Below, piece after piece: positions 3,167-38,224 of a DNA stretch of 64,000 nucleotides; positions within the stretch are counted from its first letter, which is position 1, and each line of letters opens with the position of its first letter. Where the stretch lies: NCBI GenBank assembly GCA_963706575.1, contig CAVPNL010000004.1:552476-616475 (forward strand), given 5' to 3'. The notes beneath the pieces are model-generated. The model was given only the letters and a program-made list of their open reading frames with translations. It did no database searches and was not told where the DNA came from. The stretch is from an uncultured delta proteobacterium. GTDB lineage: Bacteria > Desulfobacterota > Desulfobacteria > Desulfobacterales > JAHEIW01. Position numbers and translations under genes: made by a program.

Positions 3167-4099
3167 GTGACTGAAAGCATAGATTTTGATGGTGCAGGTA
3201 TCGCAGATCAACTGGCCGGGGTGGCAGGCATCGAGGTAAAAACTGATGAAATGATCGCGCCCTATACCACCTATAGAATTGGCGGTCCGGCAGCGATCTG
3301 GGCTGCTCCCGCAAGCGAGGACGGTATCGGTGAGGTGCTCGCGATCGTGCGCGAGACCGGCATCCCTATGTTTATCCTGGGTCACGGCTCGAATTTATTA
3401 GTTTCAGATAAAGGCTGGCCGGGGGTCATACTTTATCTGGGCGCCAATCTCAGCGGATGGCGTTTTGATAACACACGGGCCACCGTCATGGCCGGCACGC
3501 GTTTGCTGGACCTGATCCAGGATGCGGTTGACCAGGGGCTCGGCGGTATGGAACTGATGGCTGGAATCCCCGGTGGCGTTGGTGGAGCGCTACGGATGAA
3601 CGCGGGAGCTTTCGGACAGGAAATCGAGCAGACAACGGTTGCGGTAAAAGGTTTCCGAATGGACGGCACGCCTTTTGAGGCCGCCAGAAAAGAAATTAAT
3701 TTCAGCTATCGGCGGGTTCCGCAGCTGGAGCGGGTGGTGATCACCTCCGGGGAATTCCGCTTTAAAAAAACAGCTGCCAGCATATTAAAGCAACGGATGA
3801 ATGATATCCTGGAATTACGCGCAAAAAAACAACCATTGAATTACCCTTCATGCGGCAGTGTTTTCAAGCGCCCTCCGGGTTATTATGCAGGCGCATTAAT
3901 CGAAGAAGCCGGCTTGAAGGGTGAACGCGTCGGTGATGCCATAATCAGTCCCAAACATGCCGGATTTATCCTGAACACCGGCAAGGCGAGCGCCGCCGAT
4001 GTCTTCAGCCTGATCCGCAGAATCGAAGATAAGGTATGGGAGCGGTTTGGCGTAAAGCTTGAGAGGGAAGTAAAGCTCATCGGTGAGTTTAACGATTAA
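3167..4099 (+). CDS. murB: UDP-N-acetylenolpyruvoylglucosamine reductase
   Basis: TTYRIGGPA, GHGSNLL, GIPGGVGGALRMNAGAFG, SCGSVFKRP, KHAGF, LEREV motifs. Confidence 0.97.
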   Translation: MTESIDFDGAGIADQLAGVAGIEVKTDEMIAPYTTYRIGGPAAIWAAPASEDGIGEVLAIVRETGIPMFILGHGSNLLVSDKGWPGVILYLGANLSGWRFDNTRATVMAGTRLLDLIQDAVDQGLGGMELMAGIPGGVGGALRMNAGAFGQEIEQTTVAVKGFRMDGTPFEAARKEINFSYRRVPQLERVVITSGEFRFKKTAASILKQRMNDILELRAKKQPLNYPSCGSVFKRPPGYYAGALIEEAGLKGERVGDAIISPKHAGFILNTGKASAADVFSLIRRIEDKVWERFGVKLEREVKLIGEFND

Positions 4100-4131
4100 A
4101 AAAAAGCTTCAGGATTATAAAAATAAAAATA

Positions 4132-4211
4132 CACCACGAAGATCACGAAGTACACAAAGAATGATTTAAAAATAATTGAAATCCTTCGTGAACTTCGTGC
4201 TCTTTGTGGTG
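4132..4211. repeat. Palindrome built from 9-mer tandem units (CACGAAGNN ... CTTCGTG)
   Basis: caccacgaagatcacgaagtacacaaag ... cttcgtgaacttcgtgctctttgtggtg; related copy at 9763-9851. Confidence 0.8.
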
Positions 4212-4224
4212 ATATAAATACAAA

Positions 4225-5556
4225 ATGAAATCTGACCCCCCCCGGAACAACCGGCAGCTCACTCGATTTTTCATCCCGCTGGCACTTCAAGCGGCATCTC
4301 AGGCCCTTTCCTATCCCCTGATAGCGATGGTTGCCTCGCGCGGCCCCGGCGGTCCGCTGAACCTTGCCGGGCTGGCCCAATCCACCACTATAATGATCTT
4401 TCTAGGAATGTTCTGCATCTCCTATGTCACGACGGGTATGATTTATGCCACTTCCCGGGAAGGCTATCAAAAATTTAGGAATATCGTCCTGATGACAGGT
4501 TTCGGTGTGATTACTGTTCAGGCCGCCCTGTGTATTCCCTGGCTTTCGCACCTGCTGTTCGGCAATTTGATCGGGCTTCCGCCTTCGATCGCATCACCGG
4601 CAAAAATCACGCTGCTGGCCACCATCCCGGTCCAGTTTTTATTCTTTCTGCGCACCCCCTATCTCGTCGTTATGTACATTGGCAGAGCCACTGGAAAGGC
4701 CAGTCTGGCAACCATAGCCCGAATTGTCGTAACCGCCGCCCTCTCCCCGCTTTTCTGTCTTATGGATCTGGTGGGGCCGGTCTGGGCAGTGGTCTGCCTG
4801 ACGTTGCCTGCAGCCCTCGAATGCCTGCTGGCGAGATTATTTGCCCATCCATTTCTAAAAAGACTGAAATCTTCAACGACAACTCCGCCGGGGGCCGGTG
4901 AAATTTTCTTCTTCAATCTACCGCTGTCAATCGGCGGTTATTTACTGACTGCTTCGGCGATCATCATGGGTGCATTTATCGCCAGAGCGCCGGATCCCGA
5001 GCGCGTATTGCCGATCTGCTATCTGGCTCTGGGGCTGGCCAATCCGGTTGCATTTGCGGCAACGCGCATCCAGACAATGGTCCTGGCATTTCCACCGGCC
5101 GACCTCAAAGATCGCCTGACGTTTCGATTTGCTCTGGGAGCCGGAGTGGTTTTGGGGCTGCTGCCGCTGATTTTTATTCTACCCGGTCTGATTGAATTGT
5201 ATTACATCACCTTGCAAAAATTGAAGCCGGCCGATATGGGACTGGTCAGGATCACTGCCATCGGCTTGATATTTTATCCCTTTAGTGTGGCTATCCGGGC
5301 GCAAAGTGAAGGGCTCGCTGCCTGGTTAAAAAGACCCACAACGGTGATGGCCGGACATACGATCTTCCTGGCAACCATTATCGCCTCCGGCTTCCTTTTG
5401 CTTTTGCTGGGTGCTCCCGGATTTATCATCTGTGCGGCGATACTGCCCGCGGGAAGTCTGGCTTCCTCACTCACCATGCGGGCATTGATGAGCCGATCCA
5501 GGCCAAAGCCCACACCCGTCGCCCCGACAACGACCTCGGTGGGGCATGTAAGGTGA
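4225..5556 (+). CDS. Polytopic membrane protein, MATE/ANKH-like fold
   Basis: About 12 hydrophobic segments; N-terminal FFIPLALQAASQ and a two-fold internal architecture. Confidence 0.6.
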   Translation: MKSDPPRNNRQLTRFFIPLALQAASQALSYPLIAMVASRGPGGPLNLAGLAQSTTIMIFLGMFCISYVTTGMIYATSREGYQKFRNIVLMTGFGVITVQAALCIPWLSHLLFGNLIGLPPSIASPAKITLLATIPVQFLFFLRTPYLVVMYIGRATGKASLATIARIVVTAALSPLFCLMDLVGPVWAVVCLTLPAALECLLARLFAHPFLKRLKSSTTTPPGAGEIFFFNLPLSIGGYLLTASAIIMGAFIARAPDPERVLPICYLALGLANPVAFAATRIQTMVLAFPPADLKDRLTFRFALGAGVVLGLLPLIFILPGLIELYYITLQKLKPADMGLVRITAIGLIFYPFSVAIRAQSEGLAAWLKRPTTVMAGHTIFLATIIASGFLLLLLGAPGFIICAAILPAGSLASSLTMRALMSRSRPKPTPVAPTTTSVGHVR

Positions 5557-32066: not shown

Positions 32067-32164
32067 GAGGCTGGAATATTTTTTTATGTTGGCTTACCCT
32101 TTACAACCCCCACCTTAAAATTCTGATTGTGGTAGTCGATCAGATTGACGAATCGTTATTGTTA

Positions 32165-32430
32165 CTAATCGCTAACATCTCTTTGTATCGCGAGGTAATG
32201 GGTAATTTCGTCTTTTTCTTTGCGGATCGGAACAATTTTCCATTCCATCATGAATTCGGATCCATCTTTTCTATAATTAATTGCCTGACCGTGAAACAAC
32301 CTCCCCTCGGAAGTATCCTGATTCAACCGTTCGAGTACGGCTTGATCGGTATTCGGCCCTTGTAGTATAGTGATTTGCCGATGATTTCATGGGGCCCATA
32401 ACCGGTAAGCTCGCAGAACGCTGAATTTTT
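32165..32430 (-). pseudogene. Remnant of a LOV-like PAS domain gene (5'-truncated, frameshifted)
   Basis: Manual translation NSAFCELTGYGPHEIIGKS / frameshift / ILQGPNTDQAVLERL...AINYRKDGSEFMMEWKIVPIRKEKDEITHYLAIQRDVSD*. Confidence 0.75.
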
Positions 32431-32631
32431 AAATAAAAAGGCTACAAAGCGGACAGCGGCAGTTCCTTTTTTGTGTGCTCAAATACTAACCTTGCATGTC
32501 CAGCTCTATAGCCAAAAAAAATATGGGCATTGCGCTAAACTGCTGGCGCTTCATCGAGGCGCTATTTTTTGCATTGGATTCTCTGAATTTTGTCCACAAC
32601 GTGAAAAATTTTAAACTTCCGAATGAATAAC

Positions 32632-33573
32632 TCAGCCGTTTTGCAGCTTTCGCAAGTTGTCGATTGCTATTCTGAAGCTATCAACATCCTTTAAAATCTG
32701 CATTTCAGGTCCATCGAAAAAACCAGCCAGAGGCGATGCGCCCTGCCCACCAATGAAAATAGTAATATCATCGCCCAAATAACGCCTCAATTTCTTTATC
32801 TCTAGATTCAATTGATGGCTGTCCTCATAATAGGTGATGCTAAGCGCCACTGCTCGAGCATCCGCATATGCTACCGCCGCTGCAATTTCTTCTGCCGGCA
32901 AACTGGGACCGAAATACAAGGATTGCCAGTTGGATTCACATGCAATTAATGCAATTGCCAGCGCGCCGAGCTCATGCTGATGTCCTGCCGGGGTCGCAAT
33001 GACAATCTTCGGTGATGTCTCTGAAACTTCAGCTGAACGCAGCAGATTCCACAAAAAGGATCGGATGACCGTGGTTGTCATATGCTCATTGATGACTTTT
33101 AGCTCTCCGTGTTCCCATAACTCTCCGATTTTTTGGCATAGTGGTTCGATGACGGCCTTGATCAACTCCAATTTGCTCAGGTGTACCGCTGCTCGATCAA
33201 GGACAGATTCCAAACCTTTGGCATCAAAATTGAGGACGGTGGACAGCGATCGTTCGTAGAAATAGGTCGCATCCAATGAAGCGGATTCGCGAGCAGTAGA
33301 AACCTCGGAAGCAGCTGGCACATCCAACTTAACGAGCTCCATCAAATCCTCGGGAGATAGACCTGCAATCTGAGAAATGCTGTGGCCGATTTTTACACCT
33401 GTTTTCAGCATCTTAAGGCGCTCGATATCCTTTCCGCAAAACATCCGCCGGTTGGTTTCTGTTCTTTTGGGCACAACCGCCTGGTAGCGCTTCTCCCAAA
33501 TACGTATTACATGTGTCGAAAGACCGGTTTGCTGTGCAACATATCGAATTGGATATACATATTTAATTTTCAT
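32632..33573 (-). CDS. carH: CarH/LitR-type MerR regulator with a cobalamin-binding photosensor domain
   Basis: MerR HTH IRIWEKRY...RTETNRRMF; W-x9-EH (WEHGELKVINEH); B12 motif HQHELG ... YFGPSLP ... ALS ... IGG. Confidence 0.88.
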   Translation of the reverse strand: MKIKYVYPIRYVAQQTGLSTHVIRIWEKRYQAVVPKRTETNRRMFCGKDIERLKMLKTGVKIGHSISQIAGLSPEDLMELVKLDVPAASEVSTARESASLDATYFYERSLSTVLNFDAKGLESVLDRAAVHLSKLELIKAVIEPLCQKIGELWEHGELKVINEHMTTTVIRSFLWNLLRSAEVSETSPKIVIATPAGHQHELGALAIALIACESNWQSLYFGPSLPAEEIAAAVAYADARAVALSITYYEDSHQLNLEIKKLRRYLGDDITIFIGGQGASPLAGFFDGPEMQILKDVDSFRIAIDNLRKLQNG

Positions 33574-33579
33574 GGCTGG

Positions 33580-33608
33580 AATATAACATTTTTCTTTGAC
33601 ATTGTCAA
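33580..33608 (-). promoter_or_regulatory. Sigma-70 promoter of carH, probably leaderless
   Basis: Minus strand TTGACA (33608-33603), 17 bp, TATATT (33585-33580), then 6 nt to the ATG at 33573. Confidence 0.65.
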
Positions 33609-33634
33609 ATTTTTGTTTAACTTATGTCTAATTT
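33602..33634 (-). promoter_or_regulatory. CarH-type operator: three tandem 11-bp direct repeats
   Basis: Minus strand AAATTAGACAT-AAGTTAAACAA-AAATTTGACAA; each fits nAnnTnnACAn; overlaps the -35 element. Confidence 0.8.
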
Positions 33635-33701
33635 AAAGTGCATTTATACCTTATTTCATTCAGACCTAAATTCAAAACCCTTAAATTGTTAGGATCTAAA
33701 A

Positions 33702-36200
33702 ATGACCAGAGATGCAAACTCAACAGCGGATAACGAAAAGATCTTTGAAGATCAAATGAATATTCCAGAAGAATTACCCATCTTGACCCTAAAGGAGCAG
33801 GTGGCATTTCCAACACTGAATATGACCTTAGCGATTCAGGCGGAGGCAACTTCACTGATTGAAAAGGCCATGAAAGGCGATCGAATTATCGGGGCTGTGG
33901 GTATCCGGAATCCAGTTGATGATCAGTCCATGACCAAACGGGTCTTTGAAACCGGCACTGTGATCCGGATTTTGTATGCGACCCGTGCATCCGACAACAC
34001 CACCCTGTTGGTTGCCAGGGGGTTAGAACGATTCCGTATCGACCAATGGCTCTCAGAAAAGCCTTACCTGAAGGCTCGCATTACACTGGCTCCTGAAATA
34101 ACTGAGACGGATATTGAGACGGATGCATTGTTTCGCAGCCTACGCGGCCTCTCGCAGGAAGTATTTTCCTTGATGCCCAACATACCCAAAGAGGCGGTCG
34201 AAGGGCTGGCAAGCATCCGAGACCCTTTGCATTTAGCCTATATCGCTGCCGCCCATGCCGATATCGATTTTCAAAAACGGCAAAATCTACTGGAAGAAGA
34301 CCGCCTCAAGGTAAAGCTGCGCGAATCAGTGACGATCTTGTCCCGTGAAAAAGAGGTGCTGGCGCTCGGGAAAAAAATCCAAACCGAAGCCCAAGACGAA
34401 ATGAACAAGTCACAGCGGGAATATTATTTGCGGCAGCAACTCGAGGCCATAAAAAAAGAGCTGGGAGAAACCAATGGCGAGAAATCCGAATCCGATGAAT
34501 ACCGACAACGCATCGAAAAATCAGACATGAGTGCCGAAGCGCGTAAAGAAGCCCTCAGAGAGCTGGACCGATTCGCCCAAATGACGCCCCAGTCGGCTGA
34601 GTACTCCCTGATCAAAACCTATCTGGACTGGTTACTGGATCTCCCTTGGAATCAACTAAGCGAGGATCAAGCGGATATTAAGGTCGCACGGGAAATCCTA
34701 GACGAGGATCACTATGGTCTGCAAGAGGTCAAGGATCGCCTTATTGAATACTTGGCGGTTCGAAATCTTCTGAAGATCCGAGGACCCCAGAAAAATAAGG
34801 AACCCAAGGCGCCATTTTCAACCGCCATGGGCGTCATATTGTGTTTTGCCGGACCGCCGGGTGTCGGTAAAACCAGCTTGGGACAGAGCATTGCGCGAGC
34901 CATGGGGCGTGAATTTACTCGCATGAGCCTTGGCGGAATACGGGACGAAGCTGAAATTCGAGGTCACCGTCGGACATATATCGGCGCAATGCCGGGACGA
35001 ATCATTCAGGCGATTAAGCGCGCCGGCACCCGCAATCCTGTCTTTATGCTGGATGAAGTCGACAAGATCGGTTCGGATTGGCGCGGCGACCCCAGTAGTG
35101 CCTTATTGGAGGTATTGGATCCTGCTCAAAACGCCACCTTTCGCGACCATTACCTGGATGTCGATTTTGACCTGAGCGATGTAATCTTTATTGCCACAGC
35201 CAATCAATTGGAAAGTATTCCGTTGGCATTGAGGGATCGTTTGGAAATCATTCAATTAGAAGGCTATACCGAGTTTGAAAAAACTCAGATCGCCAAACGA
35301 CACCTAATTCCCCGGCAATTGACCAGTCATGGCCTGATCGATAGCGAGATGACCTTTATGGACGAGGCGATCCGGAAAATTATTAGTAGCTACACCCGCG
35401 AAGCCGGAGTCCGTCAACTAGAAAGGCTTATCGGTTCCGTCTGCCGTAAATGCGTCGTCAACCTGACGACCCATGGTTGGTCGCATGTCATCGTTACTCC
35501 TGAGCAAGTGACAGAATACCTGAAGAAAGAGAAATTCGAAACCGAACATTCTGAAGTTATTGATATGCCGGGCGTTGCAACCGGTTTGGCGGTGACGGCA
35601 AACGGAGGTGACATTCTCTATATTGAGGCAACGCGAATGCACGGTGACGGGCAACTGCACTTAACCGGTCAACTCGGCGACGTCATGAAAGAAAGTGCTC
35701 AAATTGCCTACAGCTATATCCGTGCACACGCCGAAAAGTTGGCGATTGAGCCCCAAGCATTTGATAAACGGAAAGTTCATTTGCACGTGCCGGCCGGTGC
35801 AATTCCCAAAGATGGTCCTTCGGCGGGAATCGCCATGACCATGGCCCTGGCGAGCCTGTTCAGCAACCGTCCCGTGCGCAGTGATGTCGGGATGACCGGC
35901 GAAATCACGTTACGCGGGCGCATACTTCCGGTGGGTGGAATTAAGATGAAGGTTCTAGCGGCCCACCGCGCCGGGCTCACGACCGTGATTTTGCCCAAGC
36001 GTAATGCACGCGATCTGCACGACGTACCCGAAGAGATTCGTAATGCCATGCAATTTATACCGGTGGATCGGATCGATGAGGCCATCGATATCGGACTGAC
36101 ACGATCAGAAAACAGCGCGGGAGGCGATTATCGCCCCATTGATCGTAACCTGGATCCACTCAACGAAGAGATTTCAGCGTTAGATTCTTCCGTTAGGTAA
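33702..36200 (+). CDS. lon: ATP-dependent protease La
   Basis: GPPGVGKTS, RGHRRTYIGAMPG, DPSSALLEVLD, PKDGPSAG catalytic Ser. Confidence 0.97.
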   Translation: MTRDANSTADNEKIFEDQMNIPEELPILTLKEQVAFPTLNMTLAIQAEATSLIEKAMKGDRIIGAVGIRNPVDDQSMTKRVFETGTVIRILYATRASDNTTLLVARGLERFRIDQWLSEKPYLKARITLAPEITETDIETDALFRSLRGLSQEVFSLMPNIPKEAVEGLASIRDPLHLAYIAAAHADIDFQKRQNLLEEDRLKVKLRESVTILSREKEVLALGKKIQTEAQDEMNKSQREYYLRQQLEAIKKELGETNGEKSESDEYRQRIEKSDMSAEARKEALRELDRFAQMTPQSAEYSLIKTYLDWLLDLPWNQLSEDQADIKVAREILDEDHYGLQEVKDRLIEYLAVRNLLKIRGPQKNKEPKAPFSTAMGVILCFAGPPGVGKTSLGQSIARAMGREFTRMSLGGIRDEAEIRGHRRTYIGAMPGRIIQAIKRAGTRNPVFMLDEVDKIGSDWRGDPSSALLEVLDPAQNATFRDHYLDVDFDLSDVIFIATANQLESIPLALRDRLEIIQLEGYTEFEKTQIAKRHLIPRQLTSHGLIDSEMTFMDEAIRKIISSYTREAGVRQLERLIGSVCRKCVVNLTTHGWSHVIVTPEQVTEYLKKEKFETEHSEVIDMPGVATGLAVTANGGDILYIEATRMHGDGQLHLTGQLGDVMKESAQIAYSYIRAHAEKLAIEPQAFDKRKVHLHVPAGAIPKDGPSAGIAMTMALASLFSNRPVRSDVGMTGEITLRGRILPVGGIKMKVLAAHRAGLTTVILPKRNARDLHDVPEEIRNAMQFIPVDRIDEAIDIGLTRSENSAGGDYRPIDRNLDPLNEEISALDSSVR

Positions 36201-36291
36201 ATCGAAAGCTTTTACACCGAATAATGAGCCACTAAAAATCGGCCTGGTAAACGCATTGAGTCTTCGCGCGTAATAAAGAAAGGATTGACCC

Positions 36292-38157
36292 ATGCAGAAT
36301 CAAAATCGGCTAAGAACATTAATAATTATTGGTGGTATTTGGCTTGCCTTGCTGCTGTTTAATTTTCTATCGACGAATGCCGCCGTGAAGACAATACCAT
36401 ACAGCGAATTCTTACAACTCGCCAAAGAAGGAAAGGTTTCGGAAGTTGCGGTGTCAGACAATGTCATTCAGGGCAAAATGTTTACCGACAACTCCGACCC
36501 TGAACAGGGCGAATCCTTCCAAGCGGTACGGGTCGATGCGGAAATCTCTGATGTACTTGAGCAAAACGGCATTGAATATGCCGGAAAAATCCAGTCGAAT
36601 TTTCTTTCAAATCTTTTTTCATGGATTTTTCCAGTGCTCCTGTTTCTTGGCTTATGGTTTTTGATTATGCGACGATTTCAAAAACAGCAGGGGGGATTCA
36701 TGACCCTGGGTAAAAATAAGGCCAAAATCTACATGGAAAACGACGTCGAGGTCAGATTCGAAGACGCCGCGGGCGTTGATGAGGCCAAAGAGGAACTGGT
36801 GGAGGTTATCGATTTTATAAAAGAACCCGAGCGGTTTACACGCATCGGCGGACAGATTCCGCGCGGCATTTTGCTGGTCGGCCCTCCTGGCACCGGAAAA
36901 ACCCTGTTGGCAAAGGCAGTGGCTGGGGAAAGCGGAGTGCCTTTTTTCAGTTTAAGTGGCTCGGAGTTCGTCGAAATGTTTGTCGGTCTGGGCGCAGCAC
37001 GGGTAAGAGACTTATTTAAACAGGCCAAAGACAATGCGCCCTGCATCATTTTCATCGATGAACTGGACGCCCTGGGCAAAGCAAGGGGATTCGGCACCGT
37101 CGGCGGGCACGATGAACGCGAACAAACTTTAAATCAGCTTTTGGTGGAATTAGACGGATTTGATCCGAATATCGGTGTCATCTTGATGGCGGCGACCAAC
37201 CGCCCGGAGATCCTTGACCCCGCTTTGCTGAGGCCGGGTCGTTTTGATCGCCAGATACTGGTTGATCGACCCGACAAACAGGGCAGGAAAGAAATTTTAA
37301 AAGTTCATCTCAAAAAAATAACGGCCGCAGATGATCTGGACGTTGATACCCTGGCCGGTATGACTTCAGGCATGGTGGGAGCCGATCTTGCCAACCTGGT
37401 CAATGAGGCTGCCCTTTTATCCGTAAGAAGAAATAAGCCTGCAGTGGGTATGACCGAGTTTGAAGAGGCGGTTGAAAGGGTCGTTGCCGGTCTTGAGAAA
37501 AAGAATCGGTTGATCAACCCGAAAGAAAAAAAGATTGTCGCCTATCATGAACTCGGGCATGCGATTGTCGCCATGACACTGCCCGAAACCGATCCTGTCC
37601 AAAAGATCTCTATTATCCCGCGGGGTATTGCTGCCCTTGGCTATACCATGCAGGTGCCCACTGAAGATCGGTTCTTAATGCGCCGAACCGAGTTGTTGAA
37701 TCGAATTGCGACGCTATTGGGCGGACGGGCTGCTGAGGAAATTGTATTTGATGATATTTCCACCGGTGCACACAATGACCTCTCCAGAGCGACTGATATC
37801 GCGCGTAGCATGGTCAAGGAGTACGGCATGAGCCGTCAATTGGGGCAGGTCTATTTTTCCCGCAATAAGCAAAGCCCATTTCTCAATGCGAATCCGGACA
37901 GCGGTGGTGATTACAGTGAAATGACGGCTCACTTAATCGACAAAGAGATTCGTCAAATCATCGATGAGCAGTATGAAAGAGTTCTGGGCATATTAAAATC
38001 CAGGCGGGATATTTTGGATGAGGCTGCGAAGAAACTGCTGGAAAGTGAGGTCATAGAGGGCGAGGAGCTCAAAGCACTGGCGGAGACCGTGTCACAAAGC
38101 GGAATGCCAGAAGACGATTCCGGTATTTCACAAAGCAGTCATGCCCTGGCGGCTTAA
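36292..38157 (+). CDS. ftsH: ATP-dependent zinc metalloprotease FtsH
   Basis: Two TM segments, [31 protein letters not shown]. Confidence 0.97.
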
Positions 38158-38224
38158 CCTGTCTGGGAGGGGTTTCAAAACCCCATCTGTTGGATGTAGC
38201 AAATAAATTAAAATCTTATCGGAG

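Follow-up and report, generated by a model that had tools for sequence, protein, structure and literature searches.

A candidate CarH operator probably shared by divergent carH and lon-ftsH promoters in uncultured Desulfobacterales

The spacer between the divergent genes carH and lon was analysed in a 64,000-nucleotide stretch of DNA from an uncultured delta proteobacterium of the Desulfobacterales (GenBank assembly GCA_963706575.1, contig CAVPNL010000004.1, positions 552,476 to 616,475; the whole stretch is called the window, and positions are counted from its first letter). The left gene, carH, is predicted to encode a photoreceptor-repressor of the adenosylcobalamin (AdoCbl) type, and lon is followed by ftsH. 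The segment 33602-33634 of the spacer is very probably a CarH operator, and the same operator probably also gates lon-ftsH. The full reading, in which we place fairly good confidence, is that two overlapping back-to-back sigma-70-type promoters lie under one Thermus-type CarH operator, which would block both in the dark and release both in the light. The anatomy of the sequence, the statistical uniqueness of the site, the signatures of the protein families, and the conservation and gene order were established directly. The element belongs to a known kind, the CarH operator; its conserved partner, a dedicated lon-ftsH operon, is an output that was not found in print.

Results

Anatomy of the operator and the two promoters

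The minus-strand carH gene and the plus-strand lon gene are separated by a spacer of 128 bp (33574-33701; Table 1). On the minus strand, the segment from 33634 to 33602 reads AAATTAGACAT AAGTTAAACAA AAATTTGACAA, that is, three contiguous 11-bp direct repeats (DR1 to DR3), each of which matches nAnnTnnACAn exactly at the five fixed positions, and 15 of the 15 motif positions of the operator were satisfied. An earlier note on this DNA, made from the sequence alone, had described three such repeats at 33602-33634 covering the carH -35 hexamer, with a plus-strand TTGACA facing lon and the repeats directly 3' of it. All of its coordinates agreed with the sequence: TTGACA at 33608-33603 lies inside DR3, and the plus-strand TTGACA at 33596-33601 was present as described. 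The 11-bp units on either side of DR1-DR3 were read as possible fourth repeats and rejected because they did not fit TnnACA; by the same reading, the plus-strand TTGACA half-site was rejected as a canonical repeat because the A at motif position 2 is missing. Judged by its sequence, the operator is a Thermus-type three-repeat site and not a Bacillus-type four-repeat site.

Both promoters are predictions. The carH promoter was the top sigma-70-like site in 10 kb according to the promoter scan (11/12 matches). The A of the carH ATG (33573) lies 7 nt past the -10 hexamer and is itself the predicted start; hence, the carH mRNA is probably leaderless. This geometry, which the earlier note had already read in the window with +1 at about the ATG, was widely kept: the script placed an in-frame carH ATG 5-7 nt past the -10 in 14 of 16 loci, and by reading the in-frame ATG lies 6 nt past the -10 in the other two (L008 and L053), for which the script had chosen an out-of-frame ATG. 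The plus-strand TTGACA of the predicted lon promoter abuts the repeats on their 5' side (in the plus-strand sense) and falls within the spacer of the carH promoter, and the two -35 hexamers together form the palindrome TTGACA-T-TGTCAA. An Rfam search of the whole window returned no family, and no riboswitch was found in the lon leader or near carH.

Table 1. Positions in the window of the genes and predicted elements around the carH-lon spacer.
Feature	Position	Strand	Basis and remarks
carH, class I CarH/LitR, 313-aa AdoCbl-type photoreceptor-repressor (by sequence)	32632-33573	-	Pfam, structure relatives, motifs
carH promoter -10 TATATT, TG extension (predicted)	33580-33585	-	Promoter scan
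lon promoter -35 TTGACA (predicted)	33596-33601	+	Read from sequence; mean column identity 0.99 over 16 loci
DR3 of operator, AAATTTGACAA	33602-33612	-	Holds carH -35
carH promoter -35 TTGACA (predicted)	33603-33608	-	Promoter scan, 11/12 matches, 17-bp spacer
DR2 of operator, AAGTTAAACAA	33613-33623	-	Holds predicted lon -10
lon promoter -10 TAACTT (predicted)	33618-33623	+	16-bp spacer after TTGACA; predicted start ~33630, inside outermost repeat
DR1 of operator, AAATTAGACAT	33624-33634	-	Overlies predicted lon start site; kept in 16 aligned loci
lon leader (predicted)	33630-33701	+	AGGA at 33691-33694; not conserved among relatives
lon paralogue, LonA, 832 aa	33702-36200	+	TIGR00763, 912 bits vs cut-off 608
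ftsH paralogue, 621 aa	36292-38157	+	TIGR01241, 809 bits vs cut-off 600
TPR protein, N-terminal signal-like segment	38225-38725	+	Pfam / sequence reading

Uniqueness of the three-repeat site

In the window, the triple motif had one match even when one mismatch was allowed, against 0.01 expected (100 shuffles), and no second two-repeat site with the full motif was found elsewhere in it. In the 5.67-Mb assembly, one site reached at least 14/15 positions, with 0.014 expected for the full motif; the relaxed form, TnnACA three times over, gave two sites against 0.81 expected. Moreover, the strict pattern had six matches in 41 related genomes, five of which were in carH-lon spacers, and the reversed control had one match. 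A chance origin of the three-repeat site is excluded by these tests.

Conservation and geometry of the shared site

The carH-lon spacer was examined by phylogenetic footprinting, a check that the earlier note had proposed. Sixteen spacers were anchored on the palindrome, and the mean column identity of 0.99 for the plus-strand TTGACA thus reflects a presence that is partly by construction. The mean column identity of the three repeats was 0.85 (0.91 at the motif positions), whereas the values for the flanks were 0.48 over 23 bp downstream and 0.64 over 30 bp upstream; the identity of CarH across these loci went down to ~40%. The repeats were therefore conserved relative to the downstream flank. 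Furthermore, the plus-strand TTGACA was the most conserved hexamer, although the carH promoter needs no specific sequence in its spacer.

The length of the spacer was informative as well. In four genomes it was as short as 91-107 bp, the plus-strand TTGACA lay only 57-70 bp, and the outer repeat (DR1) only 18-30 bp, away from the lon ATG. Hence, the lon promoter in these genomes must overlap the operator or sit upstream of it. In one locus with a 417-bp spacer (L050), the site was split: lon retained TTGACT, a 16-bp spacer and TATTTT together with three TnnACA repeats, all perfect and with their register unchanged, and carH had a separate, weaker site.

Synteny and distribution

carH was divergent from lon in 11 of 40 sampled relatives, and one further genome (G005) held a remnant with a frameshifted lon stub. 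In a species-level collection limited to the best 80 loci of 234 relatives, the pair was present in 13 of these 80, with one remnant in addition, and all of them were labelled as Desulfobacterales or deltaproteobacterial metagenome-assembled genomes (MAGs). ftsH was the next gene after lon in every locus that was long enough (L031, L032, L035, L036, L037 and L038). In two genomes (G007 and G013), the trio lay amid unrelated genes, with a convergent BNR-repeat gene after ftsH; the conserved unit is therefore carH/lon-ftsH.

A 24-nt probe of the joint promoter-operator pattern, which was independent of the palindrome-anchored choice of loci, matched 12 of the 25 family genomes and 9 of the 401 genomes sampled from the order, with exactly one site in each genome matched and no match for the reversed controls. 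Five of the order-level matches were outside the family: three were carH/lon pairs (G097, G360 and G196), one was on the first bases of a contig, and one had neither gene nearby. Together with the locus of G027, the pairs outside the family place the module in at least five families of Desulfobacterales.

The CarH protein

The left gene is, by its sequence signatures, a class I CarH that is closest to the CarH of Thermus. Its N-terminal MerR-type winged helix (PF13411 MerR_1, E 1e-14, residues 7-72) aligned to the DNA-binding domain of Thermus CarH. The B12 module, a four-helix bundle followed by a Rossmann fold, was covered by PF02607 B12-binding_2 (residues 110-172) and PF02310 B12-binding (189-280), both above their cut-offs, and residues 110-286 aligned to 3whp and 5c8d, the Thermus CarH structures that are also its closest solved relatives (E ~6e-27). 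The Wx9EH motif, which caps the adenosyl group, was found as WEHGELKVINEH at residue 153 and was present in 11 of 11 aligned orthologues. The second B12 signature, HxHx2Gx41SxTx27GG from residue 198, had the spacing, the axial His, the G, the SxT and the GG in place, with H as the first residue (HQHELG). The definitions of Wx9EH and of ExHx2Gx41SxV/Tx22-27GG were taken from the accessible text of PMC8156234. The top NCBIfam match was TransRegCarH (E 1.2e-32), which was under the equivalog cut-off.

The Lon, FtsH and TPR proteins

Lon carries the Pfam domains LON_substr_bdg, AAA, Lon_lid and Lon_C, as expected for the N-terminal substrate domain, AAA+ module and S16 peptidase domain of a LonA protease, with GPPGVGKT and DGPSAG intact, which we take to be the ATPase and catalytic Ser motifs of Lon. 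FtsH carries FtsH_ext, AAA and Peptidase_M41 with an intact HELGH (HExxH), in line with the FtsH layout of two membrane segments with a periplasmic domain, an AAA+ module and an M41 peptidase. The assembly has four Lon genes in all, of which the other three are 44-50% identical to the Lon of the window, and two further FtsH genes. One of these lon genes, on contig 18, sits 1.5 kb from clpP and is likely, by this neighbourhood, the housekeeping copy. Because of these other copies, the lon and ftsH of the window are regarded as extra paralogues. A TPR homologue after ftsH was absent from all three related loci that reach past ftsH (L035, L037 and L038), and two of these have a convergent gene after ftsH.

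RNA-library sequence and points against a shared operator

An RNA-library contig with two differences in 475 nt spans 33648-34122 and so includes 54 nt of the lon leader, and near-identical RNA-library contigs were also found within lon and ftsH. The promoter that feeds the first contig would therefore overlap the repeats or sit upstream of them. These data are assembled contigs whose strand and true ends are not shown and in which DNA carry-over is possible, and this is one of several points that weigh against a shared operator; uncovered stretches, such as that from carH to 33648, carry no evidential weight. The predicted lon -10, TAACTT, matches TATAAT at three of six positions, which is weak, and it was absent from the promoter-scan list. 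The TAnnnT observed 16 bp past the plus-strand -35 in 17 of 17 loci comes from loci that were picked by a regular expression containing both -35 hexamers; moreover, two of the three conserved lon -10 positions coincide with or adjoin CarH motif positions, and the conservation of the -10 is therefore not independent of the operator. A single operator in the genome also leaves room for weaker CarH sites, and published CarH operators with one or two good repeats exist, according to the accessible text of PMC9304148.

On the side of the protein, the B12 motif was otherwise kept but began with H or Q instead of E in 10 of 11 orthologues (nine H, one Q), and the orthologue of G027 has Tyr at the position of the lower axial His. 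The linkage with lon was not universal either. Four loci (L049, L051, L052 and L054) had no adjacent lon, though they are within the same Desulfobacterales CarH group, and two of them (L049 and L051) resemble the CarH of the window as much as some lon-linked CarHs do. A quick CarH tree, supported by the Shimodaira-Hasegawa-like approximate likelihood ratio test (SH-aLRT) only and rooted at the midpoint, interleaved linked and unlinked CarHs; the linked ones fell in three supported groups within one Desulfobacterales CarH group. A single origin of the lon-linked CarHs is thus neither shown nor excluded by this tree. Lastly, G005 has lost lon-ftsH-TPR.

Related loci and the gene neighbourhood

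In the G005 locus (L033, contig C206, 4592-5288), lon-ftsH-TPR was deleted and a frameshifted stub of ~107 codons was left. The conserved promoter-operator there now faces genes for DksA, a lipocalin, a chalcone-isomerase-like protein and an MFS transporter, and its outer repeat is degenerate. The G027 locus (L010/L037, contig C38), which belongs to another family, reads GDPYELG with Tyr for the axial His, yet Wx9EH, the operator and the lon-ftsH partner were retained. Near a contig end of G013 (L120, contig C74), two more arrays of TnnACA-type 11-bp direct repeats were observed at ~1490-1545 and 1775-1800, adjoining an alpha/beta-hydrolase gene and a DUF2177-like gene; G013 has a second CarH paralogue, and the arrays may represent a second target of CarH type there. 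In L056 (2137-3777, minus strand, and 4001-4960, plus strand), the gene for a Desulfobacterales CarH homologue (44% identical) is divergent from a gene for a clostripain-type C11 peptidase, which is a second, unrelated instance of a protease gene beside carH. In five loci of other phyla (L059, L068, L072, L076 and L084; Zhuqueibacter, Cytophagia, Limisphaerales and Poribacteria), a sigma-70-family gene was divergently upstream of carH, and these genes were 28-33% identical to the RpoH-like sigma factor of the window.

A LOV-like short PAS gene lies just 3' of carH on the same strand (window 32100-32600, minus strand; L002:806-1315, minus strand). It is frameshifted in the window, an intact 169-aa open reading frame in G014, and in frame in G005. 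The nearest solved relatives of its product are LOV domains (7oo9, E 1.6e-27; phototropins; Pseudomonas short LOVs), and the adduct-cysteine site reads GKSPSMLQG, with no Cys.

Across the wider segment 30363-52842 of the window runs an island of genes that are typical for the response to photo-oxidative stress, including genes for the UV endonuclease UvdE, an sll1863-family stress protein, DksA, a lipocalin, a chalcone-isomerase-like protein, an MFS transporter, DUF1295 and DUF2062 proteins, an M50 peptidase, Usp, a cyclopropane-fatty-acid synthase (cfa), DUF1365, an amine oxidase and a desaturase. The RpoH-like sigma factor is also encoded in the island (PRK06596, 263.7 bits vs 241) and has a 68% identical paralogue elsewhere. 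Further CarH sites were sought across the island (uvdE, cfa and others), and none were found. DNA near-identical to 32600-38200 (76-82% of sampled words) occurred in marine sediment, sediment, seawater and marine metagenome runs from seven studies, and parts of it were present in six RNA-library runs.

Discussion

Alternative explanations

The carH operator could serve autoregulation only, with lon-ftsH transcribed from an independent, CarH-insensitive promoter, for instance one within the lon leader or one that a different sigma factor recognises, such as the RpoH-like protein encoded 10 kb away; the synteny would then be without shared control. Autoregulatory tandem repeats do occur upstream of carH across many phyla irrespective of which gene lies next to it, the promoter scan did not pick up the weak lon -10, and the 67 bp from DR1 to the lon ATG in the window could hold a weak promoter. 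In E. coli, moreover, lon and ftsH are classic sigma-32 heat-shock genes (general knowledge), and an RpoH-like sigma factor is nearby. This explanation is nevertheless unlikely. The 18-30 bp between DR1 and the lon ATG in four relatives are too short for a promoter, and the leader is unconserved (0.48) while the plus-strand TTGACA, which is useless to the carH promoter, is invariant. L050 retains a separate three-repeat site at lon, and the RNA-library contig extends to 33648, upstream of any start inside the leader. No boxes resembling CTTGAA/CCCCAT, the sigma-32 consensus, were noticed in the spacer by eye.

The palindrome TTGACA-N-TGTCAA could alternatively be the site of a different dimeric regulator for both genes, with the 11-bp periodicity secondary. 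Its 13 bp form a perfect inverted repeat that hardly varies between loci, palindromes are bound by MerR-family regulators and many others, and Myxococcus CarA uses inverted repeats, as reported in the accessible text of PMC9304148. Two abutting -35 hexamers, however, fully explain the palindrome, and conservation runs on through two further 11-bp units in which the T and ACA positions are retained. The lon site of L050 has three repeats with no palindrome partner on the carH side, the plus-strand half lacks the A at CarH motif position 2 and so provides no fourth canonical repeat, and the module contains no further conserved regulator gene. We regard another regulator as very improbable. Even less credence is given to CarH acting on lon as a MerR-type activator that remodels the promoter spacer, an idea suggested by its MerR-type DNA-binding domain and by the location of the site between the lon -35 and -10. 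Such activation needs over-long spacers of 19-20 bp (general knowledge), whereas the lon spacer is 16 bp, and the operator also covers the lon start point; furthermore, every CarH characterised in the accessible text of PMC8156234 and PMC9304148 is a dark-state repressor. Repression of both promoters from one operator is hence preferred.

The earlier note had proposed that lon, ftsH and the TPR gene are directly derepressed by light. For lon-ftsH, the divergent linkage, the short spacers, the invariant TTGACA with TAnnnT and the split site of L050 all favour this proposal, whereas its extension to the TPR gene was not supported, a homologue after ftsH being present in 0 of 3 loci.

Relation to known systems

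CarH/LitR photoreceptors are known to control carotenoid synthesis and photolyase, as well as their own genes and those of partner sigma factors. This list agrees with the accessible text of PMC9304148, PMC8156234 and PMC9758184. A full-text literature search, which covered neither subscription-only papers nor supplements, turned up no paper that connects CarH or LitR with Lon or FtsH, in keeping with the remark of the earlier note that a protease output was unfamiliar for CarH; the genome-context tables in the supplement of PMC9304148 might list protease neighbours.

The CarH-type operator with tandem 11-bp repeats that the earlier note recognised matches published Thermus CarH in motif and layout (accessible text of PMC8156234 and PMC9304148) and is kept beside carH orthologues. 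Thermus thermophilus CarH (LitR; PDB 5C8D, 5C8E and 5C8F) is the nearest solved relative, with the same domain order, Wx9EH and axial His. Its operator, as described in the same text, has exactly three tandem nAnnTnnACAn repeats, and the -35 TTGACA of the carH promoter itself lies within one of them. The two systems differ in that the divergent target is lon-ftsH here and carotenoid-related genes there, in that the same three repeats here also cover the predicted -10 and start of a second promoter, in the first residue of the B12 motif (H instead of E) and in the host, a Desulfobacterales MAG lineage.

The CarH operators of Bacillus megaterium are also tandem 11-bp repeats, placed over the -35 or -10 of light-induced promoters (accessible text of PMC9304148). 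In a similar manner, CarH would here block the lon promoter by covering the -10 and the spacer of that promoter. B. megaterium has four repeats, or three and a pseudo-repeat, whereas the units flanking the three repeats here do not fit the motif. The Myxococcales CarH at Pcrt is likewise comparable, including the divergent crtI-carH spacers of Sorangiineae: one CarH site lies between carH and a divergent target, and repression depends on AdoCbl and light. It acts on carotenoid genes through operators of 4-5 repeats, of which some are degenerate, and the accessible text of PMC9304148 names no protease among its targets.

In Pseudomonas, a gene for a class II LitR lies beside a short LOV-type gene (PmlR2 and PmSB-LOV; accessible text of PMC9758184), and close relatives of the window similarly carry the 169-aa LOV-like gene just 3' of carH. 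The regulator here, by contrast, belongs to class I and has a complete B12 module; the adduct cysteine is missing from the LOV-like protein, and the gene for that protein is frameshifted in the window. The sigma-32 control of lon and ftsH in E. coli (general knowledge) resembles the present proposal in that a specific stress signal raises the transcription of the AAA+ proteases Lon and FtsH. There an alternative sigma factor acts on housekeeping genes, whereas a photoreceptor-repressor acting on extra paralogues is proposed here.

Proposed mechanism and significance

Binding by CarH, its repressive effect, induction by light, the two start sites and the part that the proteases play in the cell are all inferred. 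In darkness, CarH with AdoCbl bound, presumably as a tetramer with three DNA-binding domains engaged, would occupy 33602-33634. It would then cover the carH -35 as well as the spacer, -10 and start site of the lon promoter, and both transcripts would be blocked as a result. This agrees with the published mode, in which three DNA-binding domains of the CarH tetramer sit on three repeats and operators lie over a -35 or a -10 (accessible text of PMC8156234 and PMC9304148). Light would photolyse the cofactor and cause the CarH oligomer to dissociate, and RNA polymerase could then transcribe the leaderless carH leftwards and lon-ftsH rightwards. The rightward transcript may run on into the TPR gene and beyond in this genome. 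By analogy, the most likely task of the extra Lon and FtsH would be to clear away proteins of the cytosol and the membrane that light-driven oxidation has damaged.

It is possible, though offered tentatively, that carH/lon-ftsH is a self-contained three-gene module from light to proteolysis in mostly anaerobic sediment Desulfobacterales, in which the promoter of dedicated Lon and FtsH paralogues is the sole strong genomic site of the B12 photoreceptor. In a bolder form of this idea, the induced proteases would also clear photolysed CarH, and fresh AdoCbl-loaded CarH made from the co-induced leaderless mRNA would reset the switch at dusk. The module is small, with one repressor, one 33-bp site and two promoters, and overlapping co-repressed divergent promoters of this kind could serve as a compact bidirectional light switch.

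Desulfobacterales are usually seen as dwellers of dark, anoxic sediment. If the proposal is true, light would be for them an early warning of photo-oxidative or oxygen stress that pre-arms protein quality control in the cytosol and the membrane, and, with AAA+ proteases under direct control, the response of non-phototrophic bacteria to light would come to include proteolysis.

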